This document shows positions 12,416 through 33,230 of a stretch of DNA of 33,407 bases, piece after piece. Below the pieces are notes generated by a model. The model was not told the DNA's origin and did no database searches. It saw only the letters and a list, made by a program, of their open reading frames with translations. Positions within the stretch are counted from its first letter, which is position 1; each line of letters opens with the position of its first letter. The stretch comes from Coleofasciculus sp. B1-GNL1-01 (GTDB lineage: Bacteria; Cyanobacteriota; Cyanobacteriia; Cyanobacteriales; Coleofasciculaceae): assembly GCA_040220235.1 (NCBI GenBank), contig JAVJTO010000147.1. One strand, written 5' to 3'. Both the position numbers and the translations under genes were made by a program.

Positions 12416-12612
12416 TCTATTCGTCCAGTAATCGAATTATGGCGAGAAGGTTGGGGGATAGTTCGATTGATAATATCTCAGCTTTTCCTAGGGTTTTCTG
12501 TAGTTTAACTATCTTTTTTATATATTAGGTTCGTAGTAGGGAACCTTAGCCTATAAACCTAACCTATAAACTCGCCTCGATTAAACGGTGAAATGGCAGG
12601 ATTATTTTTTTA

Positions 12613-12653
12613 ACGCAGAGGTACGCAGAGGTAAGCGCAGAGGTACGCAGAGG
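12613..12653 (+). repeat. Short tandem repeat (CGCAGAGG x4)
   Basis: acgcagaggtacgcagaggtaagcgcagaggtacgcagagg. Confidence 0.8.
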
Positions 12654-12753
12654 GAGTTGGCGGTTGGGGAAGGACATTTACAATAGTAGGGTGCGTTAGT
12701 GAAACGTAACGCACCATTGCTCAGTTTGATAGGTATTTTAATCCTTTCAATTG

Positions 12754-14718: not shown

Positions 14719-14928
14719 ATGGAAGTTAGCGCTCGTAATACCTTTAAAGGGACAGTAAAAAAGGTTGTACCTGGAGCCGTTAACAGTGAGGTGACTATAG
14801 AAGTTGCTCCTGGGGTGGAAATGACGGCAATTATCACCAAGTCTTCGGCGGAACGACTTGGTCTCGCCGAAGGTAAGGAAGCTTATGCTGTTGTTAAAGC
14901 GACAGATGTCATGGTGGCAACAGATTAA
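14719..14928 (+). CDS. mop: Molbindin (Mop/TOBE molybdate-binding protein)
   Basis: SARN motif, G.VNSEV, AIIT..SA..LGL..G. Confidence 0.93.
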   Translation: MEVSARNTFKGTVKKVVPGAVNSEVTIEVAPGVEMTAIITKSSAERLGLAEGKEAYAVVKATDVMVATD

Positions 14929-15894: not shown

Positions 15895-17178
15895 TTAACC
15901 ACAACCTAAGCCACTCCCGGTACATTCTCCAACTTTACCAGCCGCTACTTGCCGTTTGCCCTTCAGCTTTGACAAATCACTTCCTTCATAAACGGCTTGC
16001 AATCCCGTCTCAATAAAACCGCTCATTTCTACCGGAAGCACACCACACTTGGTCAAAATTTCTTTCGGGTTATCGCCAATACTGCTGGCTAAAATTGCCC
16101 GACAATCTTTCAGCATATTGGCAACTTTTTGCCACCGTTCAAAACCACTTCCACGGTCAGGGGCGAGACGTTCTTCCACTAAGGTAAAGCCTTGATCTGT
16201 TTTCTGCCAAATCTGAAACTGATCCACTTGACCTAAATGCTGATTCACCAGAATTCCTTCAACGGTTGCTACAGCGACATAAGGGCGTTCTTTTTCTTCA
16301 ATGGGAATCACTTTCTTAGAACAAGCAATCAAACACCCGTGGAATTCTTCGGACTGATCTGCGCCTAAAAGTCCCACAGCATCTGCCCGACAGCGTGTAC
16401 AATGGCGCATTTGCGGTAAATATTCCTCGCATTCTTTGCGGATTTTCGCCATCGTAATCCCATCGGGTTCAGTCAATCCCTCAAATGGCGTTTCGGCGGT
16501 GGGATACATCGCCATCGCATTAAATAAATCTGCCCCAAGTTCTGCCATGGTTTTGGCAACTTCAACCACATGATGGTCATTAATTCCGGGCATAACGATG
16601 CAGTTTATTTTAACCGTAATTCCGGCAGCTTTTAGCCCTTTTACAGCTTCTAATTGCCGTTCTAAGAGTAACTTCGCACCTTTTAAGCCCTGATAAACGG
16701 ACTTTTCATGGCGTACCCAACGGTAAACTTTGCGGGTAATTTCTGGGTCGATCGCGTTGATGGTAACGGTAACGTGACTGACGCCAATTTCGGCAATTTC
16801 GTCGATATATTCGGGTTTGAGATTTAAGCCATTGGTCGCCAAGCAGAGGATTAAGTCGGGAAACTTTTCCCGCAGCAGCCGCATTGTACCTAAGGTTTCC
16901 TCTGGATTGGCAAAGGGATCACCCGGACCCGCAATTCCAGCCACACTGATTCTCGGTTCTTTCTCTAATACCTTTTCCATGTAAACAGCGGCTTGGGCGG
17001 GAGAAAGAATAGTGCTGGTGACACCGGGTCTACTTTCGTTAACGCAATCATATTTGCGATTGCAATAATTACATTGGATATTGCACTTGGGTGCTACAGG
17101 TAAATGGACTCGTCCGAACTGTCCTTTTACCTTGACATTAAAACAAGGGTGATTTTCTAAATTAACTGTGGCTGTCAT
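15895..17178 (-). CDS. nifB: FeMo-cofactor biosynthesis radical SAM protein NifB (anaerobe-type)
   Basis: HPC, CNIQCNYC, ESRPG, AGPGD, CTRCRADA; C-terminal NifX-like domain. Confidence 0.96.
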   Translation of the reverse strand: MTATVNLENHPCFNVKVKGQFGRVHLPVAPKCNIQCNYCNRKYDCVNESRPGVTSTILSPAQAAVYMEKVLEKEPRISVAGIAGPGDPFANPEETLGTMRLLREKFPDLILCLATNGLNLKPEYIDEIAEIGVSHVTVTINAIDPEITRKVYRWVRHEKSVYQGLKGAKLLLERQLEAVKGLKAAGITVKINCIVMPGINDHHVVEVAKTMAELGADLFNAMAMYPTAETPFEGLTEPDGITMAKIRKECEEYLPQMRHCTRCRADAVGLLGADQSEEFHGCLIACSKKVIPIEEKERPYVAVATVEGILVNQHLGQVDQFQIWQKTDQGFTLVEERLAPDRGSGFERWQKVANMLKDCRAILASSIGDNPKEILTKCGVLPVEMSGFIETGLQAVYEGSDLSKLKGKRQVAAGKVGECTGSGLGCG

Positions 17179-17272
17179 GGTTTTCTCTCCTGAAGTGATG
17201 AGTTGAATTTTCGGAAACTTATCAAGACTAAGTTAGTGACGAATGATTACTTGTGAACGAATGACGAATGAC

Positions 17273-17375
17273 TAAGCTGTCATGCATTTAAATTGGGTAT
17301 TAGTAGCGAGCAAGATGCTCGCACTACAAGGCTTTCGCCGTTATTGATATTAAGGTTTAAATGCCGAACAGCTTA
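17273..17375. mobile_element. 103-bp MITE with terminal inverted repeats and an apparent TA target duplication
   Basis: TAAGCTGTcatGCATTTAAA...TTTAAATGCcgaACAGCTTA inserted in an atgacNN heptamer tract; related copies at 30365-30516 and 33231-33407. Confidence 0.8.
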
Positions 17376-17391
17376 ATGACAAATGACCAAA

Positions 17392-18792
17392 TCAAAGATA
17401 GCCATACCCCACTGGTGAATCAGCTTGCTTCTTCTCGATAATGGCATTCACAATCCGATCTAACAGGTTCTGAGTCCCGCGATACCCCAGATGTAGCATC
17501 CGCTGTCCGCCAAAGCGATCGTGAATGGGGAAGCCTACGCGGATTAGGGGAATTTGCTGTTTTTTAGTCAAGGAATATCCTTTGCTGGTTCCAATCAACA
17601 TATCGGGGTCTAGACTTTCGATTTCTTCAGAAATTTCATAGAAATCAAATCCTTCTTTAACGATTGGCGGTTCGGTGACAATATCCGAAGTAACCGCATT
17701 AATCGCATCCTGAAACTGTCCACTATTTCCTCCTGATGCACATAAGACTATCTTCATGCCGATTTCGGCTAAAAATGCCGTTAATCCGACACACAAATCT
17801 TCTTCCCCATAAACAACTACCCGCTTACCAAACAGATATTTATGGGAATCAACATAGGCATCCACTAACCGCCCTCGTTCCAGTTGATGTTTTCTTGGTG
17901 TCGCACACCCAGAAACCTCTTCTAGGGCTTCAAAGAAGCGATCGCACTCTCGCAACCCAATCGGCATCCCCAAGGCGTACAGGGGCACACGGTTGCGTTC
18001 AGCCAGAAGTTGACCCCCAGAATTACCCGTGCGTTGCAACACTTGACCGAACTCAATCGTGGCGTCAGAATGTCCCATACTTTGAATCGCTGCAATTGGC
18101 GTTCCCCCTTCCGGAATCTTTTCATAGTCCATTTGTGCGGGGGCGTCTAAGGTTTCTGAGATATCCGGTAGGATCGTTCCTGGACAATTAAAATCATCGA
18201 GAACTTCTTTTAGATAACGGATATCGGCGGGAGAAACTAATCCAGGTAAAAGATTGACTTTGGCTTTCTCCTCTTGCAAAGAGGGAGTTGGGGAGGATTC
18301 AGTTACTAACTGATCAATAACTGCCCGCACTGTAGCATGGAAACCTTCCATGTGGGTGCCACTATAACTGGGGGTGGAGACATTTAACAAGGTTGGCAAT
18401 TCCTTATCGCCAAATTCTTCCTTAAACTCCCTCAATAACCCACTAACATTATCACCAATGGTTTCAGTTAAGCAAGTGGTGGCAATTCCCACAACTTTCG
18501 CGCCATATTTATCCATGACATTGAGGATACCTTTTTTCAGGTTGGGTCCTCCGCCATAAACGGCGTGTTTTTCACTCAAGGAAGATGAGGCAATGTCAAT
18601 GGGTTCGCGAAAATGACTAATGATATAACGCCTCATGTAGGTAGCGCAGCCTTGTGATCCATGCAGAAAGGGTACGGTTCCCTCAATTCCACGAAAGGCA
18701 ATACAAGCGCCCAGAGGTTTACACAGTTTACAGGCGTTGGTTGTGGAAACGTAAGCTTCGGTTTTTTGCTTAATTTTGAGTTTCTTAGACAT
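17392..18792 (-). CDS. nifN: Nitrogenase FeMo-cofactor scaffold NifN (Cys-rich anaerobe type)
   Basis: NACKLCKPLG, HGSQGCATY, TTCLTETIG, GFPIHDR; follows nifE. Confidence 0.93.
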   Translation of the reverse strand: MSKKLKIKQKTEAYVSTTNACKLCKPLGACIAFRGIEGTVPFLHGSQGCATYMRRYIISHFREPIDIASSSLSEKHAVYGGGPNLKKGILNVMDKYGAKVVGIATTCLTETIGDNVSGLLREFKEEFGDKELPTLLNVSTPSYSGTHMEGFHATVRAVIDQLVTESSPTPSLQEEKAKVNLLPGLVSPADIRYLKEVLDDFNCPGTILPDISETLDAPAQMDYEKIPEGGTPIAAIQSMGHSDATIEFGQVLQRTGNSGGQLLAERNRVPLYALGMPIGLRECDRFFEALEEVSGCATPRKHQLERGRLVDAYVDSHKYLFGKRVVVYGEEDLCVGLTAFLAEIGMKIVLCASGGNSGQFQDAINAVTSDIVTEPPIVKEGFDFYEISEEIESLDPDMLIGTSKGYSLTKKQQIPLIRVGFPIHDRFGGQRMLHLGYRGTQNLLDRIVNAIIEKKQADSPVGYGYL

Positions 18793-18841
18793 GGTTTTAT
18801 CGGTGGCAGCGAATTAGGTAATGGTTTATCATTTCAATCCT

Positions 18842-18979
18842 GGAATAATGGTGCGTTACGCTACCCTTTGGAAACGCGGCGTGAACGCTAACCCTACAAC
18901 TTAAGTTTGAGGAATAATGGTGCGTTACGCTTCGCTAACACACCCTACAACTTGAGGCACTAAAGTGCCTACTACGAAC
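18842..18979 (-). repeat. Tandem REP-like elements between nifE and nifN
   Basis: ggaataatggtgcgttacgct...accctacaactt at 18842-18902 and 18911-18953; the same family occurs near 12687 and 15809. Confidence 0.8.
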
Positions 18980-19004
18980 AACCCGTTTTAACGGGTTTAA
19001 GCTT

Positions 19005-20372
19005 TTAGCTTGAACTTGAGTTCAAGGCTTGATTTTTACGCGGCACAAATCTCCAGACGGGAGACATAACGGTGCTATGTACTTCCTTAGCAAAATTCAC
19101 CATTCCCAGAAACCCTTCTAACGCTTCCTTGCGTTCATGGTTGTGGTCACAGAATCCAAGTCCTAACTTATAGGCAATCGGTCGTTCTTTCACACCACCG
19201 ACAAAGATATCTACATCTTTTTCTTTCAAAAATGCCGAGAGTTCTAAGGGGTTAGAATCATCTACAATAATTGTGCCGTCATCGGTAACTTCATGGAGTT
19301 CTCGGTAATCTTCGCTGGTTCCCGTTTGCGAACCCACCATCACCACATCCATGCCGATAAGTCGGAAGGCTTTCACTAAGGAAAAAGCCTTGAACGCACC
19401 GCCCACATAAATCGCCGCTTTTTTACCTTGTAAGTCTTTGCGGTACTCTTGCAGTTTAGTATACAACAGGGTTAATTCTTCCCGCACTAAGTCTTGAGCG
19501 CGTTTGAGAATGTCTGGGTCATCCTCGAAGAAGCGGGCAACTTTATACAAGGCTTCCGCCATGTCTTCGACACCAAAGTAGGACACTCGTAGAAACGGAG
19601 TTCCATACTTTTCTTTCATCATTTTGGCTAAGTCCATCGTCGCCCCAGAACACTGAACCACATTGAGTGCAGCGCCGTGCGATCGCGCGATATCTCCAAC
19701 TCTACCATCGCCTGTGATATTGGCAACAACCTGGACACCCATGCGTTCAAAATATTCGCGGATAATCCAAATTTCTCCGGCTAAATTAAAATCACCCAGA
19801 ATATTAATACTGCGAGGAGAAATTCCGGTAGTATCCCCTGTCCCCACTAAGCGAAACATGGCAGTACAAGCAGCATTATAGCCCGCCCGTTTGTTGCCCT
19901 TAAATCCTTCTGATTTAACCGGGATAACGGGGATATTTTTTTCTTGGCTAACTCGCCGACATATCGCTTCTAAATCATCACCAATAATCCCCACAATACA
20001 AGTTGAATAAACAAACGCCGCATTGGGGTGATGTCGGTCAATCAGTTCCGTTAACGCCTGATGGAGTTTCTTCTCACCCCCAAAGATGACATCCCGTTCT
20101 TGTAAATCCGTGGAAAAACTCAACCGATGCAATTCTGGACCCGATGAAAGCGCCCCGCGAATATCCCAGGTATACGCCGCGCAGCCGATGGGTCCGTGGA
20201 CTAAATGAACCGCGTCAGCGATGGGGTATAAAACAACGCGAGAACCACAAAATACGCAAGCCCGTTGGCTAACTGCACCCGCCAGACTATCTTTATTACA
20301 TTCCAGATTAAACGGTTGGTTTCCTTTGCGGTGAATTTGCTTTTCACGTTCTTGGAAAATAACAGGTTCCAT
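19005..20372 (-). CDS. nifE: Nitrogenase FeMo-cofactor scaffold NifE
   Basis: SQRACVFCG, HGPIGCAAY, STCIVGIIGDD, VVQCS; start placed at MEPVIFQERE (20372). Confidence 0.93.
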   Translation of the reverse strand: MEPVIFQEREKQIHRKGNQPFNLECNKDSLAGAVSQRACVFCGSRVVLYPIADAVHLVHGPIGCAAYTWDIRGALSSGPELHRLSFSTDLQERDVIFGGEKKLHQALTELIDRHHPNAAFVYSTCIVGIIGDDLEAICRRVSQEKNIPVIPVKSEGFKGNKRAGYNAACTAMFRLVGTGDTTGISPRSINILGDFNLAGEIWIIREYFERMGVQVVANITGDGRVGDIARSHGAALNVVQCSGATMDLAKMMKEKYGTPFLRVSYFGVEDMAEALYKVARFFEDDPDILKRAQDLVREELTLLYTKLQEYRKDLQGKKAAIYVGGAFKAFSLVKAFRLIGMDVVMVGSQTGTSEDYRELHEVTDDGTIIVDDSNPLELSAFLKEKDVDIFVGGVKERPIAYKLGLGFCDHNHERKEALEGFLGMVNFAKEVHSTVMSPVWRFVPRKNQALNSSSS

Positions 20373-20450
20373 ATCGTCAGGCTCACAAACGTTGTACAAA
20401 AATGCTTTTAGAAGAAGCGGAAAAGGCGGGGAATAAGTAAGCCCCGACAT

Positions 20451-20680
20451 CCGCCAAGAACTCAAGTTCTTGGCTTATAGCTCAAGTCGTCTAAAGACGA
20501 CTGGAATTCTTTCGTGTAGGGGCGACCCGCTTGTACAAATCAACAACTATATCCATTCAATTAATTGACTCGGGTCGCCCTTTACTAATCCTTTCTTTGA
20601 AATGTTCTAGAATTCTGAGCGAGTCGTCTTTAGACGACTTTCGCGTTTGGTTCCTTGGGTTTGAACCCAAGGCGGTTTAA
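20451..20680. repeat. Composite palindromic element: inverted double-hairpin pair enclosing a GTAG REP
   Basis: 20451-20504 and 20622-20680 are inverted relatives; gtaggggcgacccg...cgggtcgccc lies at 20516-20580. Confidence 0.75.
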
Positions 20681-20696
20681 GGCGAGTGCTTTAGAT

Positions 20697-21002
20697 TTAA
20701 CTAACAAACAGATAATCCTCAGCAGGTTTGCCGTCTTCTAAGGCGTCGAGGATTTCGTCAATGGCTTCTTCATCAACATTGCCGTACCAGTAATTATCTG
20801 GATAAACCATCATCACAGGTCCGTTGTTGCACAGATTCATGCATCCCGTTGAGGAAACCAGAGCGTCTAAACCGCGATCGGTGATTTCTGATTCGAGATA
20901 CTGGATTAACGTTGTAGAATCCTTGTTCTGACAAACTCCTTTCGCGTTGCCATTGACTCGAAAGCTGGAACAAACGAAGATATGGTGTTCAGGTTTCTGC
21001 AT
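20697..21002 (-). CDS. Thioredoxin-like [2Fe-2S] ferredoxin
   Basis: HIFVC-x11-C...TGCMNLC..GP.M.VYP...WY; ATG at 21002 with an AGGGGG ribosome-binding site. Confidence 0.9.
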   Translation of the reverse strand: MQKPEHHIFVCSSFRVNGNAKGVCQNKDSTTLIQYLESEITDRGLDALVSSTGCMNLCNNGPVMMVYPDNYWYGNVDEEAIDEILDALEDGKPAEDYLFVS

Positions 21003-21140
21003 GATAAACCCCCTTAAAAAGGATGAAAAATTAAGGATGATTTTTGAGTTTTTTAGGACTAACTCCAACCTTGGATTTGGGGCGGATTTAGTCACATCAG
21101 GTGACACCAATTATCCGAATTAACCCGCCCCGATCGCGTT

Positions 21141-22517
21141 CTAGCGAACCAATTCAAACAGCTCATCGGGAGCATCCCGGTCGAGGCGTTCGAGTAAGGT
21201 GTTGCAAATATTAGATAGCAGGTAGATACCACCCCAGTAGCAAGCTGTGGGGAAGTAGCTGTGACCGACGCGATCTAAAATGGGGAAACCGAAGCGCACG
21301 ATCGGAATATCTTCATCACGACCGATATACTTGCCGTATTCATTGCCCAGAAGCAAATCGACTGGTTCATTCTTAATCAGTTGATGCAAGTAGAACAAGT
21401 CTGCATTAGCTGCAACCACAGCATCGGGAACGGTATCCTTGAGGATATCTTTGACCCGTTCTTCAAAGCGCTTACCAACCGGGCTACCCGTAATCACGTA
21501 AACTGGTAACATCCCGCAGTCTACGAGGAACTCAGTCGCAGAGATCACCTGGTCAGGGTCACCGTATACCGCAACCCGCTTGCGATACAGATACTGCTGC
21601 ATATCCGTCATCACATCAACCAACCGTCCTCGGTCATCATTGAGGGACTCAGGTGGCGTGACATCACTGAATTCAATCAAGGCTTGGACAAAGCGGTCAG
21701 TGGCGCGAAGACCAATGGGTAAGTCTAGGACACGAGCCGGAACTTGGCACTTGTTTTGTAGGGCTGTCGCGGCGGCTTCTGAGGTAAAATTACCCAAGGC
21801 TAAGGTGGCAGTGCTATTCCCGGTGTCGATTAAATCGGGAATCAGTGTCCCGCCTTTCGGGTACATCTGAAAATCACCGGTTTTCGGTGTATCCACCACA
21901 TCCGAGGTATCCGGGAATACAATCGCGTCAATCCCCATTTGGGTCACCAACTGCTTAACCGCCCGCACGTCGGAGGGTTCGACATAGCCCGGAATAATGT
22001 TGAGCTTGTTATTCGGCGTCTCGGTTTTTGCCGATAAATAGGTCACCATCGCCTTGGTCATATTCGACCAGCCGGTGACATGAGACCCGACGTAGCTGGG
22101 AGTATTGGCGTGAATGACATATTTGCCTTCGGGAACTGCCCCAGATTCACGGGATTGGCGGATAAATGTGGGTAAATCATCGCCAATGGTTTCCGATAAG
22201 CAAGTGGTACTTACCGCCACCATATCCGGGTTGTACACGGTAAAAATAGTGGTCAGAGCTTGCTTGAGGTTTGCACCACCGCCGAACACAGAGGAACCCT
22301 CAGTAAAGGCGCTGGTTGCCGCCATGATGGGTTCTCTGTAATGGCGGGTCAGGTGAGACTTGTGGAATGAACAGCAGCCTTGGGAACCGTGGGAGTTGGG
22401 CAAGCAGCCGTGAATCCCTAATGCGGCGTACATTGCACCAATAGGCTGACAGGTTTTAGCCGGGTTAATTCGTAGCGCCTTGCGTTCAACGATTTCTTTA
22501 GGGGTTGCTTCTAACAT
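21141..22517 (-). CDS. nifK: Nitrogenase MoFe protein beta chain (short N-terminus, cluster III type)
   Basis: INPAKTCQP, HGSQGC, TTCLSETIGDD, PSYVGSH; ATG at 22517 with an AAGGAG ribosome-binding site. Confidence 0.96.
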   Translation of the reverse strand: MLEATPKEIVERKALRINPAKTCQPIGAMYAALGIHGCLPNSHGSQGCCSFHKSHLTRHYREPIMAATSAFTEGSSVFGGGANLKQALTTIFTVYNPDMVAVSTTCLSETIGDDLPTFIRQSRESGAVPEGKYVIHANTPSYVGSHVTGWSNMTKAMVTYLSAKTETPNNKLNIIPGYVEPSDVRAVKQLVTQMGIDAIVFPDTSDVVDTPKTGDFQMYPKGGTLIPDLIDTGNSTATLALGNFTSEAAATALQNKCQVPARVLDLPIGLRATDRFVQALIEFSDVTPPESLNDDRGRLVDVMTDMQQYLYRKRVAVYGDPDQVISATEFLVDCGMLPVYVITGSPVGKRFEERVKDILKDTVPDAVVAANADLFYLHQLIKNEPVDLLLGNEYGKYIGRDEDIPIVRFGFPILDRVGHSYFPTACYWGGIYLLSNICNTLLERLDRDAPDELFELVR

Positions 22518-22673
22518 GATTCTGGTTCTCCTTTGTGGGTTTAAGTCTGTAGGGGCGGGTTTCACTATTAACGTTGCTTGTTCAACCTAGATGTGACTAA
22601 ACCCGCCCTGCTCGCAAGAATTAACGGATAACTTTTTTGCTCTCAGACGCGCCATGGCGCGTCTCTACATTGG

Positions 22674-24293
22674 CTAGTTCTGCCAGGGAGCTTTAACTAA
22701 CTTCCAAGTGGGGTTGTTAATCCGCATATCGATATCTTTGGCAAAATTAACCGCACCTTGGAATCCGGCAAACGGACCACCGTAGTCGTAGTTGTGAAGT
22801 TGCTTACAAGGAACGCCAAACTTCTCAATCACATACTTGTCCTTAATCCCGGAACCGACGATATCGGGCTTGAGGCGCTTAATCAGAGTTTCTAGCTCAT
22901 GATGGGAGATGTCATCAATCATCAACGTGTCTTCACCCATCTCCGAAATCATCCCCTCGTACCGATTCAGGAACCCTTCTTCTTTAAGCTGCTCCACCCA
23001 TGCTGGGTCAGCAGTTAGTTTGTAGCGCTCTGGGTCTTTTTCGACACGCAACTCTTCGACGTTACGGGAGTCGGCGTCTACTTTCAACGGTAGAACTTGA
23101 CGACCTTCGTAGTCATCCCGGTGAGCGAACTCATAGCCAGCAGCAATGGTTTTGATGCCTAAGTCTGCAAACAAGTCTTGGTAGTGATGAGCGCGAGAAC
23201 CGCCCACAAACAGAATCGCACTCTTGCCTTGCAACCGTTCTCGAATCGGGGCAATTTCCGCTTCTGCGGCAGCCACTTCTTCAGCAATCACCTCTTCAAT
23301 GCGCTGGGTAAGTGCCTCATCATTAAAGAATCGGGCAACCTTACGCAAGGACTTGGCAAACGCTTGAACGCCGATGAAGCTGACCTTTGTCCAGGGAACC
23401 CCAAACTTGGTCTCCATCATCTCCGCCATGTAGTTAATTGAGCGGTGACACATGACCAAGTTCAACTTAGCTAAATGGGCTTTCGTCGCTGCATCGTAAG
23501 TGCCATCACCACTGAATGTAGCAATCACATTAATTCCACACTTCTCAAGCACCCGCTCAATTTCATAGGAATCGCCGCCAATGTTGTACTCACCCAAAAG
23601 GTTGACGGTGAAGCCTTCAATTTCTTCGTCTGTTGCTTCGCCTTCACCCACCCAATTTTTAAAGAAGCCATTGTTGGCAATGTGGTGACCCGCAGACTGG
23701 GAAACGCCTTTGTATCCTTCGCAGTTAAATGCAACAACCGAAATGCCCAACTTTTCTGTCATCTCTTTGGCAACGGTTTGAATATCGTCACCAATTAACC
23801 CCACGGGACAAGTTGCCGTCACCGTAATCGCATTGGGCTTGAAGATGTCGTAACCTTCCTGAATTGCCTGACGCAGCTTTTTCACACCGCCGAAGACAAT
23901 ATCAGAGTCCTGCATATCAGTGGTGACACAGTAGCTCATGTAATTCTTGCCATCTTCACGGCTACGATACTGGTTGCGTCGCGTCATCCAGGTGTAGTAA
24001 GAACAGCCCACTGGTCCGTGAACAATGTGCAGCACGTCACCAAAGGGACCAACAACCACCCCTTTACAGCCAGCAAAGGCACAGTGTCTGGTGTTGAGAA
24101 TGCCAGGAACGGTTCGCACATTCGCCTGAATTTCCTGTCCTTCGATGGACGGGTCCCGCATCACGATATGCTTTGCCCGTTTTCTGGCAACTTTGGCTGG
24201 GTAGGGCGATACCATCTCTTTGGTAACGTCTTTCGGGTCTACTTCATACGTCGCCTTTTCTAATTTCAAGGTATCTGAATCATGGGGACTCAT
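22674..24293 (-). CDS. nifD: Nitrogenase MoFe protein alpha chain (with the group II internal insertion)
   Basis: P-cluster Cys motifs, MCHRSINY, GGSRAHH, QLHNYDY; about 50-aa insert after HRDDYEGR. Confidence 0.96.
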   Translation of the reverse strand: MSPHDSDTLKLEKATYEVDPKDVTKEMVSPYPAKVARKRAKHIVMRDPSIEGQEIQANVRTVPGILNTRHCAFAGCKGVVVGPFGDVLHIVHGPVGCSYYTWMTRRNQYRSREDGKNYMSYCVTTDMQDSDIVFGGVKKLRQAIQEGYDIFKPNAITVTATCPVGLIGDDIQTVAKEMTEKLGISVVAFNCEGYKGVSQSAGHHIANNGFFKNWVGEGEATDEEIEGFTVNLLGEYNIGGDSYEIERVLEKCGINVIATFSGDGTYDAATKAHLAKLNLVMCHRSINYMAEMMETKFGVPWTKVSFIGVQAFAKSLRKVARFFNDEALTQRIEEVIAEEVAAAEAEIAPIRERLQGKSAILFVGGSRAHHYQDLFADLGIKTIAAGYEFAHRDDYEGRQVLPLKVDADSRNVEELRVEKDPERYKLTADPAWVEQLKEEGFLNRYEGMISEMGEDTLMIDDISHHELETLIKRLKPDIVGSGIKDKYVIEKFGVPCKQLHNYDYGGPFAGFQGAVNFAKDIDMRINNPTWKLVKAPWQN

Positions 24294-24404
24294 AATCGTT
24301 TTCTCCTGTCTTAATTACTTTCCTAGAAGGGCGGATTTAGTCAAGTTATCGATGTGTACCAAACTGTTATCTGTAAACCCGCCCCTACATTTCGCTGGGA
24401 AACC

Positions 24405-24800
24405 TTAACCCGCCATTTCATCAATCGCGACGGCTCCTGTTTCGCCGCTGCTAACGCGGACACTATCCTCAACGGGCAGAACAAAGATTTTTCCATCTCC
24501 TGGGTTGCTGGTCTGATTGGTTTGAATCAGGGCATCAACCACTTGCTGAACGTTGTCATCGGGAACCACCAAACTGAGCATACGTTTAGGGATTAAACGG
24601 TGTCCTTGAGCCAGAAGGGGCAGCAAATCACTGCTATCTTGGGGATTTTCATTAATCGCTTTCGCTAACTGAAAGTCCACGGCTTGCCTGCCTCGACCGA
24701 CTACTTTCACCGCTGTCACGGATGGAAAACCAGCTTTGCTTAATGCTGCTTTCGTCTGGTTAATTTTGTTCATCCTGATGACAGCCAGAACTTCTTTCAT
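24405..24800 (-). CDS. nifI2: PII-family nitrogenase regulator NifI2
   Basis: MKEVLAVIRMNK, GRGR, PKRM, GDGKIFV; second PII gene between nifH and nifD. Confidence 0.9.
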   Translation of the reverse strand: MKEVLAVIRMNKINQTKAALSKAGFPSVTAVKVVGRGRQAVDFQLAKAINENPQDSSDLLPLLAQGHRLIPKRMLSLVVPDDNVQQVVDALIQTNQTSNPGDGKIFVLPVEDSVRVSSGETGAVAIDEMAG

Positions 24801-24853
24801 AACCTTAAACACAGAGATTTACTCTCGCGCCTCCTAACATAAACCGGGGAGTT

Positions 24854-24890
24854 TTCTTGTAGAAACCGTTATTCGCGATTTCTACAAGAA
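24854..24890. repeat. 12-bp perfect inverted repeat between nifI1 and nifI2
   Basis: ttcttgtagaaa ... tttctacaagaa. Confidence 0.7.
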
Positions 24891-24916
24891 CAACGGATAC
24901 AAAATGGGTCTCATTT

Positions 24917-25276
24917 TTAGCGCGTAGCCAGCGCAGGTTCTTTCGTCTTTGAATCGGCTTTACCGGAGCTGATGGTGTAGACTTCTTCTACAGGACTGAC
25001 AAATATCTTGCCGTCTCCTGCTGCTCCTTCTGTTCCCGTGCGAGCGCTGCCCAGGATTGCCCGAATCACAAACTCTTTTTCGGTATCGGGAACCACTACC
25101 ATTAACAACGCTTTTGGGAGTTCATCATAAAGCACATTACCAATTTTCAATCCCCGTTGTTTGCCTCGACCAAAGACATCAACTTTGGTAACGGCTGGAT
25201 AACCAGCATCTAAGAGCGCTTTCATAACATCGTCGCTCTTTTCCGGTCGAATAATCGCTCTCACCATGATAGTCAT
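24917..25276 (-). CDS. nifI1: PII-family nitrogenase regulator NifI1
   Basis: RAIIRPEK, GRGKQRG, YDELPK, GDGKIFVSPVEE. Confidence 0.92.
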   Translation of the reverse strand: MTIMVRAIIRPEKSDDVMKALLDAGYPAVTKVDVFGRGKQRGLKIGNVLYDELPKALLMVVVPDTEKEFVIRAILGSARTGTEGAAGDGKIFVSPVEEVYTISSGKADSKTKEPALATR

Positions 25277-25314
25277 GGGATGTTGCCTCCAAACAATTGT
25301 GCTTGTATTTCAGC

Positions 25315-25349
25315 GGTGGAAGGTATGGAACGTTTTCTAACCTTCCACC
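25315..25349 (-). other. Stem-loop immediately 3' of nifH (possible mRNA-stabilising or attenuating hairpin)
   Basis: ggtggaaggt ... accttccacc, 10-bp perfect stem. Confidence 0.55.
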
Positions 25350-25366
25350 TGCAACACACTGCATCT

Positions 25367-26203
<837 letters not shown>

Positions 26204-26354
26204 TTAGGATCAATTTTTTGAGGTTACATCATTAACAGTTAATTGAAGTTGATTCGGAGAATTTTTGTATATTCAACCATCCGAAAGCTTCAAATCAATC
26301 AAGAAACAAGTGAGCGTTTATCCTGGTAACGTTTTTTGTTTTCCTGATGATTTA

Positions 26355-26396
26355 ATAATAGGAACTAAATCCAGACATAAAAGTGTAACTTGCTAC
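26355..26396 (-). promoter_or_regulatory. Putative NtcA-activated promoter of nifH
   Basis: Minus strand GTA-GCAAGTTA-CAC (26396-26383), 22 nt, TATTAT (26360-26355). Confidence 0.6.
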
Positions 26397-26609
26397 AAAA
26401 ACAGAACTTTATCGATTTAGTTTTAACTCGGTATTTTGCTGTTTGTAACAAAAATAATGTGTTTCTATATAAACAATATAACCATTGCCAAACCTAGAAG
26501 AATCAAATCTTTAGTTATTATTAAAAGTGACAGAAATCACTGCTTTCTATTTGTGCTATTCAAATAAAAAAATAATTATTTTTCGAGTTTATTAGACCTG
26601 TTATAAGTC

Positions 26610-26640
26610 AAAAAAACACCCTTGGCGATTCACCAAGGGT
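26610..26640 (-). terminator. Intrinsic terminator after nifU
   Basis: Minus strand acccttgg-tgaatcg-ccaagggt followed by gttttttt. Confidence 0.7.
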
Positions 26641-26709
26641 TACCTATACAACGGAGTTACGTTAAAACTTGTTCAATCAGAAACTGAAGTCAAAATTTGC
26701 ACATTAAAC

Positions 26710-27657
26710 TTAAACTACGGCTTCAACAATAAGATTAGGAGACACTCGTTCTTGCAGCCGCTTTTCGATCGCCATCTTCAGGGTAATCATCACGCTGGGA
26801 CAACCATCACACGATCCTTTGAGAATCACCTTGACGCGATCGCCCTCTACGTCATGCAACTCCACATCGCCGCCATCATAGGCTAATGTGGGACGGATTT
26901 CCGTTTCCAGAACCTGCTGAATCAAGGTAATTTTTTGCAAGTTCGTCAGGGTAGCAGGAGGTGGCGATGTCTCCTCTTTGATCGGGGAAGTCGATGGAGT
27001 CGTTGTAGCGACGGCGGGTTGAGGAATCGGTGCGGACAACGACGCGGCGGTATTTAATGTCTCTTGTTCTTGAGTAACATCAATCACCAGATCATCGATA
27101 TCTGCCAAACATGATCCACACCCGCCACCCGCTTTAATGTAGTTGGTGACTTCTTCAGCGTTAGTGAGGTGATTTTCCCGAATCAGTCGCTTAATCTTAG
27201 CGGAACTAACCCCAAAGCAACTACACACCAAGGGACTTTCGTCCTCTTCCTCCGGTCTAACCGGAATCCCTTTATAATCAGAGATTGCCGCTTCTAGGGC
27301 TTCTTGACCCATAACCGAACAGTGCATCTTCTCTTGAGGTAAGCCGCCCAAATAGCTAGCAATCTCGCGATTCGTCAGTTGCAACGCATCATCAACCGTC
27401 ATCCCCTTAATCAGATCCGTCAGCGCCGAGGAAGACGCGATCGCACTCGCACAGCCAAAGGTTTGAAAACGGGCATCCAGAATGGTATCAGTTGTGCTAT
27501 CAATCCTCAGATACAAGCGCAACGCATCGCCACAAACAATACTGCCAATTTCGCCAACCGCGATCGTTTCCGTCGTCGCACAATCTTGAGTTGCGATCGC
27601 GCCCATATTGTGAGGATTATGAAACAAATCCATTACTTTGTCAGTGTAGTCCCACAT
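26710..27657 (-). CDS. nifU: Fe-S cluster scaffold NifU (cyanobacterial type)
   Basis: MWDYTDKV, CGDAL, FGCASA, KMHCSVMG, CSCF..GGGCGSC; C-terminal DGGD..GSCDGC. Confidence 0.96.
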   Translation of the reverse strand: MWDYTDKVMDLFHNPHNMGAIATQDCATTETIAVGEIGSIVCGDALRLYLRIDSTTDTILDARFQTFGCASAIASSSALTDLIKGMTVDDALQLTNREIASYLGGLPQEKMHCSVMGQEALEAAISDYKGIPVRPEEEDESPLVCSCFGVSSAKIKRLIRENHLTNAEEVTNYIKAGGGCGSCLADIDDLVIDVTQEQETLNTAASLSAPIPQPAVATTTPSTSPIKEETSPPPATLTNLQKITLIQQVLETEIRPTLAYDGGDVELHDVEGDRVKVILKGSCDGCPSVMITLKMAIEKRLQERVSPNLIVEAVV

Positions 27658-27788
27658 GGCTTATTCTCCCGTTATTTGTCATTCGTCATTTGTTAGGGAA
27701 CAAGGAATAGGTAAGGTAGAGTTTTGAGTTAACGTCCTCATCTCCCTTATCTCCCAGACGTAGCATGCTACGTCTCTACAAACCCTGT

Positions 27789-29018
27789 TCATTTCACTGT
27801 CTCCATAACCCCTCTCCCCTTTTGCTCCCTGGCTGTTTGCAGCCAACCGTGTTCTTCGTCGGCTTCATTCTTGAAGGGGGAAATCGTTCGCAAGCGTTCT
27901 ACAATTGCTGGCATTACTTCCAACACCCGATCGATTTCGGCTGAGGTGGTATATCGGGACAAACTAAAGCGAATCGAACCATGAAGCAGGGTGTAAGGGA
28001 GTCCCATCGCCCGCAGCACATGAGAGGGTTCTAATGATCCAGACGTGCAAGCCGAACCCGACGAGGCGCAAATTCCAAACCGATCTAGGGACAGTAAAAT
28101 GGCTTCGCCTTCGATATACTTAAAGCCAATATTCGTCGTATTCGGTAGCCGCATCGAGGGATGACCATTTAGCTGACAATCGGGAATCCGACTCAGTAAC
28201 CCTTGTTCCAAGCGATCGCGTAATTCCTTCACCTGGGTAACTTCTTCGCTGACATGCTGGATTGCCAATTCTGCGGCTTTCCCTAAGCCAATAATCGCGG
28301 GAACATTCGACGTACCTCCTCGACGCCCTCGTTCTTGATGTCCACCAATTAACAGGGGACGAAAGCGCACACCTTTGCGAACATAAAGTACCCCAATCCC
28401 CTTAGGTGCATGAAGTTTATGACCGGAGAGAACCAAGAAATCAACCGTACTCTCGCTCATATTCAAGGGAACTTTCCCCACCGCCTGCACCGCATCAACG
28501 TGGAACAAAATGCCCCGTTGTTTAACAATTTGCCCAATCCGTTCAATCGGGAAAATCGTCCCCGTTTCATTATTGGCGCACATCACTGAAACTAAAGCCG
28601 TGTCGTCGGTGAGAGAGGCTTTCAATTCCTTGAGATCAATCAATCCTTTGCCATTAACGGGGAGATACGTCACCCGATAGCCTTCTTTTTCCAGTCGTTT
28701 GCAAAGTGTGTAAACTGCTGGATGTTCCACCGCTGTGGTAACAATGTGCTTCTTGTCCGGTTGGGTGATCAACGCCGCACGAATCGCCGCATTGTCTCCT
28801 TCCGTACCGCAACTGGTAAAGATAATTTCTGTCGGTTGAGCGCCCAATAATGCCGCAACTTTTTCTCGTGCTTGCTCTATATTGCGGGCTAATTGTCCAC
28901 CAAACGTGTGCATGCTGGAGGGATTTCCATAATATTCACTCAGATAAGGCAGCATCTCCTCCAGCACAGCCTCGTCTACACGGGTGGTGGCATTATTATC
29001 CAGATAAATTACACTCAT
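27789..29018 (-). CDS. nifS: Cysteine desulfurase NifS
   Basis: YLDNNATT, SGHKLH, SSGSACTSGSLEPSHVL. Confidence 0.96.
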   Translation of the reverse strand: MSVIYLDNNATTRVDEAVLEEMLPYLSEYYGNPSSMHTFGGQLARNIEQAREKVAALLGAQPTEIIFTSCGTEGDNAAIRAALITQPDKKHIVTTAVEHPAVYTLCKRLEKEGYRVTYLPVNGKGLIDLKELKASLTDDTALVSVMCANNETGTIFPIERIGQIVKQRGILFHVDAVQAVGKVPLNMSESTVDFLVLSGHKLHAPKGIGVLYVRKGVRFRPLLIGGHQERGRRGGTSNVPAIIGLGKAAELAIQHVSEEVTQVKELRDRLEQGLLSRIPDCQLNGHPSMRLPNTTNIGFKYIEGEAILLSLDRFGICASSGSACTSGSLEPSHVLRAMGLPYTLLHGSIRFSLSRYTTSAEIDRVLEVMPAIVERLRTISPFKNEADEEHGWLQTAREQKGRGVMETVK

Positions 29019-29171
29019 AGGTCTACCTATAGAACATCAGTCTCGGAATCGAACTCGATGCTAAAATTCCTGTAAAATCGTAACCAAAGATACAAAATAC
29101 TCCATGTTTGAATCAGGGCGGATTGAGTGAAGGGATTGATGGTTGTCAAACTTTATTGGTAAAACCCGCCC

Positions 29172-29642
29172 CTAGACCCTTTGATATTGCTCGTAGAAAT
29201 CCAGCACTACATTTTCAATCACATCGTAGGCTTCAACGCACTCAATTCCCTGCGCTTGCAATTGTTCCTTGGGACAAGCACCAATCTTAGAAACGAGAAC
29301 AGCTTGGCAATCTGAAAGCGTTTGCAGAATATTGTCGAGTACATCGGCTTCGCCATACCCGCCTTGGCAATAGGGAGTTACGGAACGCCGCTCAATACAA
29401 TGGGCTTCATCGTGATCAACGTCGTAAATCTCGAATTCTTTAGCATGACCGAAATGTTGATTAACCAAGCCACCGCCTTTACTGGCGACAGCAACGCGGA
29501 TTTTAGTCCGATTGGCGACAGAGGATGTATTTTCAGTTCGAGTCGCATTCAGGAATTCTTTAAACGGCTCTTTACCCGTTTGTCGTTCCTGATGTCGTTT
29601 CAAGTCGTATTCAGATTTCATCTTCAGACTGTTGGTGTTCAT
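29172..29642 (-). CDS. nifB: Truncated cyanobacterial nifB: linker plus C-terminal NifX-like domain only
   Basis: VAVASKGGGLVNQHFGHAKEF, YCQGGYGE, KIGACP and EAYDVIE match the cyanobacterial NifB C-terminus. No radical SAM domain. ATG at 29642 with AGAAGGA; canonical position upstream of nifS. Confidence 0.8.
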   Translation of the reverse strand: MNTNSLKMKSEYDLKRHQERQTGKEPFKEFLNATRTENTSSVANRTKIRVAVASKGGGLVNQHFGHAKEFEIYDVDHDEAHCIERRSVTPYCQGGYGEADVLDNILQTLSDCQAVLVSKIGACPKEQLQAQGIECVEAYDVIENVVLDFYEQYQRV

Positions 29643-30033
29643 AACATCCTTCTCCGGTGTCCCCGAATCGCCTAATCGTCTGGGCGTAGCCAATCCAGTA
29701 ACTGTTAACGGTTTGAGTCGTGGGCTTTCGGCATTGTCTGAATTAAAAGATAAATGCACCCTTAACACCCAACGCCAATACTTAAACAGTTAAGTATGAA
29801 GGAGTTGATTGAGCATCCTTCATACTTGAATTCCGGCGATAGTTGTTTTTATAGCAGCTCGGTTGAAAAAGGGTATTCTGTTCGCCTGGGGTTAAGACTT
29901 ATTAGATTAATTGGTTATGCACTCATCACCCTAAAGTCTGATTACAGAGGCATTTCAAATTTATTTTGGGGTAGGGGTTCTAGTATTTTCGGGATGGGGT
30001 GCAAGTATTTATGGGGTGGGGCGTTAGAGTTTT

Positions 30034-30115
30034 TGTACTCACGCTCAAAGTCTATTGTAGTGAGGGATTGAGCTAATTTTATTCGGAGCTTTTACTGAGT
30101 ACAGATTTGTACTCA
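30034..30115. promoter_or_regulatory. TGAGTACA boxes (putative CnfR/PatB sites) upstream of nifB'
   Basis: TGTACTCA at 30034-30041; palindrome TGAGTACA-gatt-TGTACTCA at 30096-30115. Confidence 0.65.
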
Positions 30116-30231
30116 AAATGCTTATCGGTTAAATCTAACGTTTTACCTTGAATGGCATTTCTGTATCTAAATTAGCATTTTTTTGCGGAGTCTGCATTTC
30201 TATCGATTTTTTTTAGATTTCCCCGATTGGT

Positions 30232-30660
30232 GTAGGTTGGGTTGAGGAACAGGGGTTGTAGAGACGTGCCATGGGGCGTCTGGGAGATGGAGAAAATGTA
30301 GGGGCGGGTTTTACCATTAACATTTGGTTTTCACCCTGATGTCACTAAACCTGCCCCAACGGATTAAGCTGTCATGCATTTAAATTGGGAATGGGTAGCG
30401 AGCAAGATGCTCAATGTAGCGAGCAAGATGCTCAATGTAGCGAGCAAGATGCAAAGCCTGCGGCATGGCTTCGCTAAACGCACTACGGCAAGCCCTTATT
30501 GATATTAAGGTTTTAAAAATAACCCCCCTTAATCCCCCCTTGCTAAGGGGGGAAACGTTCCCTCCCCTTACGAAGGGGAGGGTTAGGGAGGGGTCGCATC
30601 AAGGTATTGCGTTCTGGCAAGAGCTTAAGTTGACACGGATTGGCATTGCCGTGTCCCTAC
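30232..30660. repeat. Mosaic of REP-like palindromes, a partial MITE with 21-bp tandem repeats and CCCCCTT..AAGGGG hairpins
   Basis: GTAG elements at about 30232, 30258 and 30298; MITE 30365-30516; hairpins about 30523-30593. Confidence 0.75.
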
Positions 30661-30679
30661 TATATGTGATGTGGCGTTT

Positions 30680-31063
30680 TTACTTAACTGGCGTATAATT
30701 CCAGCCATAAATGCGGTAACGTTCTGAAGCTGGAAAAACAGGATCATTGTTAACCGTGGTAATGCTCAATTGATTACCCTGCTCGTCTTGAAAGATAAAC
30801 TTACAAAAACCCAAACCCGTTCCAGAGCAGGCTTCTATCTCGTGCCATCCCTCGACCTGGTGTATATGATTCCTGAGTGTTTCAAATTCATTTTCCAGCT
30901 CAAACGTGGCAGGTTGCCATCCTATCTCGATGAGTTCTTGTCTTAAAGCCCGATAGGACTGATTCTGATTAATGTGGGGTAATGGTAATCCCAAGGCTTT
31001 CTGTACTGATAAGAGTGATGTTGAGAAACTTAACGCATATATTAAAAACTTCCTCATCTTCAA
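30680..31063 (-). CDS. Hypothetical secreted protein
   Basis: Signal-peptide-like N-terminus; Y..LRQ.LI..GWQP and EACSGTGLGFC.F motifs. Confidence 0.7.
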   Translation of the reverse strand: MKMRKFLIYALSFSTSLLSVQKALGLPLPHINQNQSYRALRQELIEIGWQPATFELENEFETLRNHIHQVEGWHEIEACSGTGLGFCKFIFQDEQGNQLSITTVNNDPVFPASERYRIYGWNYTPVK

Positions 31064-31359
31064 CCATTTCCTCTATGTTGTTTCCACTCTTTTATATCCT
31101 CTTTTTCCGGGCGGGTGTAGTCCTGACTTTTCACGTCATCTAGAAAAATCGATATCAAACCTAACCCCCCAGCCCCTTCCCTTTTAGATCCCCCTCTTCC
31201 CTTTTGATCCCCCTTCCGTCCCCCTTCAAAAGGGGGAGACCAGATGTTGCTTCGCTTTTGGTTCCATGGGTGAAGAATTCAAAGCCTCTCTCCTTGCAGG
31301 AGAGAGGTTTGGAGAGAGGTTTTCCAGATCCCGTGAACAGTCAGGTTATCGTCAGATTC

Positions 31360-31483
31360 TGAGTACACAAATACTAGAACCTCGACCCAAAACTCTTGCC
31401 ATCCGGGATAAAAAATACGAGAACCCCGATCCCCCCAGCACGGATAAATTCCCATAAAATCAGAAGGTTGAGCGTTGAGTACA
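31360..31483 (+). promoter_or_regulatory. TGAGTACA boxes (putative CnfR/PatB sites) upstream of nifP/cysE
   Basis: TGAGTACA at 31360-31367 and 31476-31483; ttgagcgttgagtaca mirrors 30034-30048. Confidence 0.6.
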
Positions 31484-31590
31484 TCATTAATAAGTGAATC
31501 CAGTCTAATCTGTCGCTAATGTGCAACCTAGCCATCAAACATCTGGTATAAGCTTCAAAAAGATCAACTTCGTTTCAGGGGCGATATGCA

Positions 31591-32433
31591 ATGCTACAGT
31601 CCACGACTAATTACTCAACAGCGCGATCGCAGCTTGCCACCCCAGTAGCAGAAGGCAGAAGGCATAATTGGATAACCCATTGTCAGCCACCTATAGATGA
31701 TAGGGAATTAGAACGAGGCGACACTGATAAAATCCCTAGAGTCAGAACACCGTTTCAGGTGATCAAGCAAGGCTGGCGCACCCTCTTAACCGACTTTCAG
31801 ATTATCTTTGAACGTGATCCAGCCGCCCGGAATCGGTTCGAGGTATTGGTTTGCTATCCCGGCTTACAGGCGCTGATCAGCCATCGCCTCGCCCATTGGC
31901 TGCATCGTCAGCGAGTACCATTCCTTCCCCGTTTCCTGTCTCAACTGGCGCGATTCTTCACCGGAATCGAAATTCATCCAGGGGCGGTGATGGGTAAGGG
32001 TGTGTTTATTGATCATGGCATGGGCGTGGTGATTGGCGAAACCGCGATTGTGGGCGATTACTGTTTGATTTACCAAGGCGCAACCCTGGGCGGAACCGGT
32101 AAAGAAACGGGCAAACGCCATCCCACATTAGGGAAGAATGTGGTGGTGAGTGCAGGTGCCAAGATATTGGGGAATATCCACATTGGCGATCATGTTCGCA
32201 TTGGGGCGGGTTCAGTCGTGTTGCGCGATGTCCCCACCGATTGTACGGTGGTGGGAGTACCGGGGCGAATTGTACGTCAGTCGGGTAAGCGTATTGATCC
32301 CCTAGAACATGGACAGCTACCGGATACACAAGCCGCCGCGCTACGGACGTTACGCGATCGCATCACCGAACTTGAACAGCAATTGGAATCCTTGAGTCGA
32401 AAAGAAAACCAGGATGAAAAATGCCTGGATTAG
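31591..32433 (+). CDS. cysE: Serine O-acetyltransferase (nif-associated NifP/CysE)
   Basis: [43 protein letters not shown]; exact start uncertain. Confidence 0.93.
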
Positions 32434-33061: not shown

Positions 33062-33230
33062 TTTTTATCTCGCCTAACTTGTGAAAATGGACTAATCTGA
33101 TAGTAGCAGAACCTTAAACGACGACCCGATCAAGTGCTATTGGCAGGTGTTACGCGATCGCATCACCGAACTCGAACAGCAATTGGCATCCTTGAGTCGA
33201 AAAGAAAACCAGGATGAAAAATGCCTGGAT

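Follow-up and report, generated by a model that had tools for sequence, protein, structure and literature searches.

Nitrogenase (nif) gene clusters of the "desulfo-type" (Group II, with a nifH of cluster III) are on record from several cyanobacteria. Thirteen strains carrying such a cluster were described as a "distinct group" with nifI genes and an insertion in NifD (PMC9435057; this and the other published sources are cited from the passages covered). A further account reported that the cyanobacterial nifB'SU genes are preserved, considered that nifB' "might not be functional" and left single versus multiple transfer open (PMC12694226), and a preprint listed Group II nif genes in 10 genera as "ancient" clusters (10.64898/2026.01.15.699626). 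Coleofasciculus builds microbial mats, and its nitrogenase has not been switched on in culture: a table in PMC12694226 lists the genus as showing neither acetylene reduction nor expression of nifHDK in culture and Sodalinema as reducing acetylene, and according to the same account no cyanobacterium holding only a Group II cluster shows convincing diazotrophic growth. The stretch of DNA analyzed here (the window; 33,407 nucleotides) is the whole of contig C147 (JAVJTO010000147.1) of the 8.66-Mb genome of Coleofasciculus sp. B1-GNL1-01, and its nif locus is the known desulfo-type cluster of the genus. The chimeric make-up is itself published, as the two papers and the preprint describe the cluster type and the kept nifB'SU; the deltaproteobacteria-like cluster of Microcoleus (Coleofasciculus) chthonoplastes mentioned in an earlier note on this DNA is likewise of a type in print (PMC9435057, PMC12694226). 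An intact CnfR promoter block, a terminator hairpin, an NtcA pattern, selection on nifB' and a single origin followed by spread were not found in print, where supplements or figures may hold some of them, and in the literature matches on NtcA and promoters in these genera the words "NtcA" and "promoter" occur 0 times. The reading favored here, with a probability of about 0.7, is that this cluster of two origins likely formed once and likely spread sideways, and that two host regulators are predicted to drive its halves separately.

Two phylogenetic origins in one cluster

The open reading frame (ORF) listing and family scans give nifP on the plus strand, divergent from nifB'-S-U-H-I1-I2-D-K-fdx-E-N-B on the minus strand (Table 1), and each nif gene of the cluster occurs once in the genome. 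Scores exceed the NCBIfam cut-offs for NifH, D, K, E, B, S, U and NifP and fall slightly short for NifN (304 vs. 327). The earlier note had seen a cyanobacterial order from nifP to nifH and a cluster III-like block from nifH onward, and both descriptions are borne out. NifH has 274 aa and lacks the cyanobacterial C-terminal tail, nifI1 and nifI2 lie between nifH and nifD, NifD carries the insertion of ~50 residues common to Desulfobacterota-type NifD, NifK lacks the long cyanobacterial N-terminus, and a ferredoxin gene and a terminal nifE-N-B follow; the ends of NifH and NifK are of the Desulfobacterota type. A recombination point inside nifH was considered and none was seen, NifH being Desulfobacterota-type from its first residue.

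The gene trees divide the cluster at the same place. NifS and NifU fall inside the cyanobacterial clade with support of 100 in the SH-like approximate likelihood-ratio test (SH-aLRT), in trees of 96 rows (the non-cyanobacterial ones being a random draw of 20 from 50) and 95 rows (20 from 62), respectively. All 19 hybrid-cluster rows, exact duplicates having been dropped, form one clade in NifS (97), NifU (96) and the combined NifS+U tree (98), and this clade stands apart from canonical rows, including 9 of the same family. The NifS+U tree (67 rows) is a quick tree under a mixture model, and its supports, like those for CnfR, are SH-aLRT only. NifP lies within cyanobacteria near the family members G430, G444 and G445 (SH-aLRT 90), and the nifB' tree, with 105 columns, places the gene on the cyanobacterial side and resolves little beyond that. 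NifH, D, K, E, N and B branch with anaerobe sequences and away from canonical cyanobacterial ones (separating branch 99-100) in trees that, like those of NifI1, NifI2 and the ferredoxin (Fdx), were built on subsamples of the fetched rows. The cyanobacterial carriers form one clade each in NifD (100), NifH (99), NifE (93), NifN (99), NifB (88), NifI1 (89), NifI2 (87) and Fdx (87), lying among Desulfobacterota-type rows, and NifK is placed on the Group II side with support of 100. NifP, NifB', NifS and NifU are cyanobacterial, and NifH, I1, I2, D, K, Fdx, E, N and B are Desulfobacterota-type, which is the division that the earlier note expected from per-gene phylogenies; a single origin for all nif genes is not seen, because the NifS/U and Group II gene trees differ in placement.

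The minimal nifHDKENB set is intact, with open frames and a nonsynonymous to synonymous substitution ratio (omega) of 0.03-0.14. NifD is 95-99% identical to seven records titled Coleofasciculus, and a NifD match occurs in 20 of 52 family genomes, comprising 9 of 9 of the genus at 95-100% and 11 others at 43-45%, which is the canonical level. The GC content gives no island signal, and third-position GC content (GC3) is near the genome mean (z -0.4 to 2.3).

A CnfR-type promoter block upstream of nifB'

The sequence TGAGTACA is the repeated motif of the CnfR-controlled nifB and nifP promoters (10.1101/2025.04.01.646610). Sites of the form TGAGTAYA number 7 in the window vs. 1.28 expected (0/100 shuffles), five of them between nifB' and nifP, and nowhere else among the 532 genome sites do three cluster as they do at 30034-30115. 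With a profile built from canonical loci only, the nifB' block is the best match in the genome and the nifP block the second, the next match having an E-value of 0.064; the window departs from motif 1C at one position, and on the nifP side the match is partial. As judged from these motifs, an intact CnfR-type promoter precedes nifB' and a partial one precedes nifP. The idea that nifB' also retains the 5' end of the native nifB was unsupported by alignment.

A scan of 20 hybrid upstream regions, two of them duplicates, gave 128-153 bits for the seven distinct Coleofasciculus sequences, 76 for Phormidium CCY1219, 38 for locus L010 and 23 for L185, at most 10 bits for the Sodalinema-type loci and L017, and no match for L187 and L189. 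The preprint states that cnfR is kept in Group II carriers and that its cis-elements were not found (10.64898/2026.01.15.699626); as the block is intact in Coleofasciculus and weak in several carriers, this statement holds for those carriers and not for this genus.

The CnfR homolog of the genome (C70:91879-93492, 537 aa) has an N-terminal 4Fe-4S ferredoxin domain and is unlinked to the nif cluster. Its name is given from the domain layout and co-occurrence with nif rather than from a curated model: among the 28 family genomes searched, the match is strong in 13/13 with NifD and weak in 1/15 without. An exact GTAN8TAC box upstream of this cnfR was looked for and none was found. The CnfR homologs of other hybrid carriers (L181, L017, L346-L349, L363) sit on long branches, some seemingly without the N-terminal ferredoxin motif, a pattern that roughly tracks the decay of the promoter block.

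The nifU-nifH junction

A hairpin of 10 pairs followed by a T run lies 70-100 nt past nifU and is kept in 7/7 aligned sequences of the genus. A single rule for such hairpins picks out 17 of 19 hybrid spacers, none of the 53 canonical spacers and 3 of 1000 shuffled versions of the window spacer. A canonical spacer element, defined after inspecting the spacers, shows the opposite distribution: 35 of the 53 canonical spacers have it, and none of the 19 hybrid ones do. From these distributions, the swap junction lies in the nifU-nifH spacer. Locus L189, with broken nifS and nifH, is out of the spacer counts, and L165, a mis-cut region of 4245 nt, is out of the NtcA count.

Between the hairpin and nifH lies a predicted NtcA site. 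The class II consensus comprises GTAN8TAC (core GTN10AC), ~22 nt and TAN3T (PMC3898017), a layout that the window pattern of GTA-N8-CAC, 22 nt and TATTAT fits. All 8 loci of the genus have the strict pattern, as do 5 of the 15 other Group II loci, which represent 5 of 9 lineages; its distance to nifH is 205-248 nt throughout. The box is perfect in three of these other lineages (L031, L019, L008), and the Sodalinema-type loci have a GCA-N8-TAC variant at -227/-228 in 4/4 examined. Outside Group II loci, the strict pattern turns up in one of 53 canonical spacers, in one of 53 upstream regions of non-cyanobacterial nifH genes and in 156 of 4382 genome ORFs. The lone window site is weak evidence, and the fixed position across lineages is the main argument for a putative NtcA promoter. 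The genome contains ntcA; a sigma-70 scan gave no excess above shuffles. As the nifH1 gene of Anabaena variabilis has no promoter of its own (PMC4284476), the predicted nifH promoter would be a real change of wiring. The earlier note had proposed that host Fe-S supply and regulation were retained: the cyanobacterial nifSU, the CnfR elements and the cnfR homolog agree with this, and the hairpin separating nifU from nifH and the NtcA-type pattern on the foreign block do not.

The selected nifB' domain and the cofactor pathway

The truncated nifB' is 45-59% identical to the C-termini of canonical cyanobacterial NifB vs. 35% to the cluster's own terminal NifB. With canonical NifB N-termini as queries, no radical-SAM remnant was found in the spacer, no remnants of fdxN, nifX or nifW were found in the spacers, and a tblastn search of the genome yielded no match for nifX, W, Z, T or DUF269. 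Within the genus, purifying selection acts on all 13 nif genes, with omega at 0.03-0.20 overall and 0.12 for nifB' (6 pooled, non-independent pairs); nifB' is therefore not decaying. It carries a Nitro_FeMo-Co domain and scores 45 bits against TIGR02663 (cut-off 112), and its H-F-G histidine aligns with that of cyanobacterial NifX and would be equivalent to H35 of A. vinelandii (PMC13128457). NifX shuttles NifB-co to NifEN via a histidine, and the C-terminal domain of NifB is its closest look-alike (PMC13128457). The predicted role of nifB' is likely that of a cofactor carrier standing in for NifX.

NifV passes its cut-off in 0 of 9 genomes of the genus, and a LysS-type homocitrate synthase that passes its own cut-off in this genome likely replaces it. 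Pyruvate:ferredoxin oxidoreductase (PFOR) is present as a possible electron source. At locus L224 (G000:C83:1659-2964), an isopropylmalate-synthase-like gene is seemingly split over two frames.

A probable single hybrid, likely passed between cyanobacteria

The approximately unbiased (AU) test on 45 rows of NifS+U rejects the grouping of Coleofasciculus with the canonical relatives G447/G448 (delta lnL 205), with G002/G401/G422 (delta lnL 213) and with G430/G445 (p 0.0006). It does not reject a clade that joins G430/G445 to all hybrids (p 0.22). On an RpoBC tree of 61 genomes, the distribution of carriers takes at least 7 changes. Constraining the concatenated HDKENB alignment (18 rows) to the species tree is rejected (delta lnL 783, p-AU 5e-5), as is a clade of Coleofasciculus, G449 and G190 (p-AU 1e-4), and the alignment pairs Coleofasciculus with Phormidium CCY1219, a pairing that RpoBC rejects; therefore the hybrid likely moved between cyanobacteria. 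These trees suggest that it likely formed once and was then passed sideways between distant cyanobacteria.

A species tree of 8033 columns and 20 genomes, from which G445 was omitted at 33% coverage, places G433 as the sister of Coleofasciculus and G447/G435/G448 next, and rejects Coleofasciculus with G430/G444 (delta lnL 189). The room for a native scaffold given by RpoBC (Coleofasciculus with G430/G444/G445, p-AU 0.066 and 0.137) was overturned by this larger marker set. The sister genome G433 (99% complete) has no NifD match and no CnfR match, so that the gain of nitrogenase by a non-fixer, which the earlier note had dismissed, is a possible history for Coleofasciculus. Its account of a xenologous replacement in situ survives in the cyanobacterial scaffold and the two origins; its claim that the locus was the lineage's own is not supported by the AU tests against the nearest canonical relatives. 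A swap within a cyanobacterial nif cluster likely took place in some ancestor; for the Coleofasciculus lineage itself it is unproven.

The AU test rejects the CnfR of Coleofasciculus with that of G447/G448, its grouping with G430/G445 ties with the best tree, and its grouping with other carriers has a p of 0.105. ModBC groups mainly with family relatives. Of 54 genomes, five gave a modD, and four of these belong to hybrid carriers. The canonical NifS/U of the family (L161-L175) fall in four places, so the relatives' canonical clusters may be replacements themselves, and canonical nif clusters also seem, from these trees, to move between cyanobacteria. No non-nif flanking genes shared with the relatives' nif loci were seen in draft contigs that end near the loci. 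Other carriers keep nifV and a linked cnfR, and the Coleofasciculus locus is without both.

Three further loci are of note. In G450, modD and mop lie beside cnfR and the nif cluster, and modD may travel with the cassette. In G190 (L189:9297-10720), nifS is cut and fused to a 5'-truncated nifH, nifU is missing and nifD is split, as in a decaying hybrid copy. The hybrid cluster of LEGE 06147 (L017:7210-7605) has an IscA/HesB-like gene between nifU and nifH.

Working model and rival explanations

The anatomy, trees, motif conservation and selection described above would fit the following history and wiring, in which every step of binding, transcription and activity is a prediction. In one canonical cyanobacterial cluster, all genes from nifH onward were likely exchanged for a Group II block, and the native nifB, being redundant, likely lost its radical-SAM domain. 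CnfR (encoded on C70) would turn on nifP and nifB'SU, the latter transcript ending at the hairpin past nifU, and NtcA, sensing nitrogen shortage, would switch on the genes from nifH to nifB, using a class II promoter ~205 nt before nifH. NifS and NifU would likely supply Fe-S clusters, the terminal NifB would make NifB-co, and NifB', standing in for the missing NifX, would likely carry it to NifEN, with NifI1/I2 adding a post-translational switch-off after ammonium (role taken from PMC9435057, PMC12694226 and 10.64898/2026.01.15.699626). A bolder form of this model, to which we give somewhat less than even odds, is that the sulfate-reducer operon was domesticated once by new wiring (a terminator separating it from the ancestral CnfR transcript, an NtcA promoter before nifH and a nifB kept as stand-alone carrier) and spread as a cassette among mat cyanobacteria, with Coleofasciculus as its most complete scaffold and possible birthplace. 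Runs X1 and X2 were discarded as expression evidence and look like DNA, because depth is similar over genes and spacers and records reach 109 kb; contigs of 170-645 nt in X12 and X13, over nifH/I/D, nifB and the nifB' leader, show presence only.

Several observations weigh against the favored reading. NifP, CnfR (65-67% identity) and the nearest canonical NifS/U point to the family members G430/G444/G445, and NifP and CnfR, which are not clearly with the other carriers, also fit a native scaffold. The hybrid NifS/U branches are longer, with NifS+U support coming from the quick tree, and the NifN and NifB trees name other closest carriers than NifD and NifK. The NtcA box of the window has one mismatch, and 53 of 1000 spacer shuffles yield such a site; L009 and L185 are without a matching site and L187 has a weak one, and the canonical spacers, being shorter, offer fewer chances of a match. 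The silent Coleofasciculus cultures tabulated in PMC12694226 count on the same side.

In a rival account, which is the earlier note's claim at its strongest, the swap occurred in situ in the Coleofasciculus stem on an inherited cluster and the hybrid was then exported to other cyanobacteria. This is unlikely on balance, even with the cluster in all nine genus genomes and a scaffold that is the least decayed among the carriers, having the highest promoter scores (at most 76 bits elsewhere), the longest NifB' linker, nifP and an unlinked CnfR falling among canonical ones. The affinities to G430/G444/G445, the clade of all hybrids with G430/G445 and the CnfR tie also suit it, as do the scattered canonical NifS/U of the family, where the relatives' clusters are possibly replacements. 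It is opposed by the 8033-column tree, by a sister genome without NifD or CnfR and next relatives with other scaffolds, by the flanks, and by the nifV and linked cnfR that other carriers keep. For the wiring, the whole cluster could instead be one CnfR-driven transcript with the hairpin as a leaky terminator or a stability element and an NtcA-like site that is auxiliary or there by chance, as the nifB promoter of A. variabilis drives its whole cluster and the 5' end of its nifH is processed with a stem-loop (PMC4284476), and the CnfR block is intact in Coleofasciculus. That arrangement appears rather improbable given the mutually exclusive T-tailed hairpin and canonical element (a pattern picked after inspection), and given that the NtcA pattern holds its position where the CnfR block has decayed and also in L008, which has nifHDK without adjacent nifSU.

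Two broader histories carry far less weight than a hybrid formed once and passed sideways. Entry of the Group II cluster into a common ancestor of several cyanobacterial orders, with vertical descent and many losses (mapped in 10.64898/2026.01.15.699626), would explain the single clade of cyanobacterial Group II genes and the near-average GC3, but it is disfavored by the HDKENB tests and the number of changes on RpoBC, and its rescue would need hidden paralogy of several ancient copies; we consider it very improbable. A transfer from a sulfate reducer to a non-fixer that brought in the complete cluster with its nifSU and involved no cyanobacterial nif ancestry, the usual summary of a 2010 report as cited in PMC9435057, is refuted by the gene trees: the AU test rejects the NifS+U of Coleofasciculus with two Desulfomonilaceae/Syntrophaceae rows (p 1e-5) and all hybrids with them (p 3e-4), NifB' and its promoter are cyanobacterial, and nifSU is absent upstream of nifH in the closest donor-type loci.

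Anatomy of the locus

Table 1. Features of the Coleofasciculus nif locus, in window coordinates.
Feature	Position	Strand	Basis or remark
nifP, serine acetyltransferase, cyanobacterial	31591..32433	+	TIGR01172 above cut-off; tree
Partial CnfR-type promoter block of nifP	31355..31495	+	TGAGTACA at 31360 and 31476, 116 apart; profile E=8e-10
127-aa ORF, no known family	30680..31063	-	between nifP and nifB' promoters
CnfR-type promoter block of nifB'	29889..30122	-	profile from 35 canonical loci, E=1.3e-39
Parts of nifB' block	1A 30115-30108; inverted copy 30096-30103; 1B 30041-30034; 1C 29925-29918		A/C-rich 2A/2B; 1C variant TGAGTGCA
Likely extended -10 element, TGcTATAA	29848..29856	-	aligned to canonical nifB promoters; predicted function
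nifB', C-terminal linker and NifX-like domain of cyanobacterial NifB	29172..29642	-	likely start 29642, 156 aa
nifS, cyanobacterial, hybrid-cluster clade	27789..29018	-	cut-off, trees
nifU, cyanobacterial, hybrid-cluster clade	26710..27657	-	cut-off, trees
Intrinsic-terminator-like hairpin after nifU	26608..26640	-	10 pairs and T run
Putative NtcA class II promoter pattern	26355..26396	-	GTA-N8-CAC box 26396-26383, 22 nt, TATTAT -10 box
nifH, Group II, Desulfobacterota-type from first residue	25367..26191	-	cut-off, tree, alignment
nifI1 (PII family)	24917..25276	-	domain scan, tree
nifI2 (PII family)	24405..24812	-	domain scan, tree
nifD, Group II	22674..24293	-	cut-off, tree, ~50-aa insertion
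nifK, Group II	21141..22565	-	likely start about 22517, 458 aa
Thioredoxin-like [2Fe-2S] ferredoxin	20697..21110	-	likely start 21002, 101 aa
nifE, Group II	19005..20465	-	cut-off, tree
nifN, Group II	17392..18792	-	just below cut-off; tree
nifB full-length, Desulfobacterota-type	15895..17178	-	cut-off, tree
mop, molybdenum-binding protein	14719..14928	+	
modD	13681..14547	-	in the sample, seen mainly in hybrid-cluster carriers
modA and fused modBC, molybdate transporter	10553..13557	-	ModBC closest to family relatives

Beyond nifB, the locus is extended by an HmpF-like fragment, mop, modD, modA and modBC. The fragment is a 140-aa ORF (15102-15524) that matches the N-terminus of HmpF only and is 96-100% conserved in the loci of the genus, and a gene for a Nif11-domain peptide (9675-9893) lies just past the mod operon. 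On the nifP side, the 127-aa ORF is present in G415 and not in L005 or L007, and repeats also sit between nifP and nifB'; a second cysE is located on contig C23. A family of 21-bp tandem repeats occupies 30395-30452 and 33311-33407, where the contig terminates inside it, and also occurs at the ends of contigs C118, C145 and C40. A duplicate of the last ~29 codons of nifP (33144-33230, ~90% at the protein level) lies 700 nt downstream of the gene and adjoins a DUF433/DUF5615 gene pair and repeat sequence.

Significance and comparison with known systems

The predicted split control, in which CnfR would govern Fe-S supply, NtcA the structural genes and NifI the switch-off, gives exact sites that can be tested and suggests that both signals must coincide. 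The single origin and spread, the CnfR block, the terminator with the NtcA pattern and the selected nifB' make the regulation of a silent cluster directly testable, and the claim of absent CnfR elements is corrected, at least for Coleofasciculus. The locus is also a natural example of how a foreign nitrogenase from anaerobes was adapted to a host that produces oxygen, and as such it is relevant to nitrogenase engineering.

The closest described systems are the other desulfo-type clusters, including the nifVB'SUHDKENB cluster of Sodalinema (PMC12694226), which share the gene order, nifI1/I2, the NifD insertion, the terminal nifENB, the truncated nifB' and cyanobacterial nifSU. The Sodalinema cluster has nifV and that of Coleofasciculus does not, and assays of Sodalinema succeeded under light/dark cycles with sulfide; the published accounts hold no NifS/U/P trees in the passages covered and report CnfR elements as not found. 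The nifH-I1-I2-D-K-(fdx)-E-N-B operon of Desulfobacterota (Desulfomonilaceae, Syntrophales) lacks nifB'SU and nifP upstream, unlike Coleofasciculus, and has the same order from nifH, 51-84% protein identity and the nearest position in the trees. Compared with the canonical Group I cluster nifP <> nifB-S-U-H-D-K-E-N-X-W of Leptolyngbya boryana and Anabaena variabilis, Coleofasciculus has Group II structural genes, a nifB cut to its C-terminal domain and no nifX/W/Z/T/DUF269 found, and its nifH is predicted to have its own promoter, whereas the canonical nifH1 is a processed transcript. The two share the divergent nifP/nifB pair, nifSU, cnfR and mop/mod nearby, and motifs 1A, 1B and 1C stand in the canonical promoter at the same 74 and 116 nt spacing as in Coleofasciculus.

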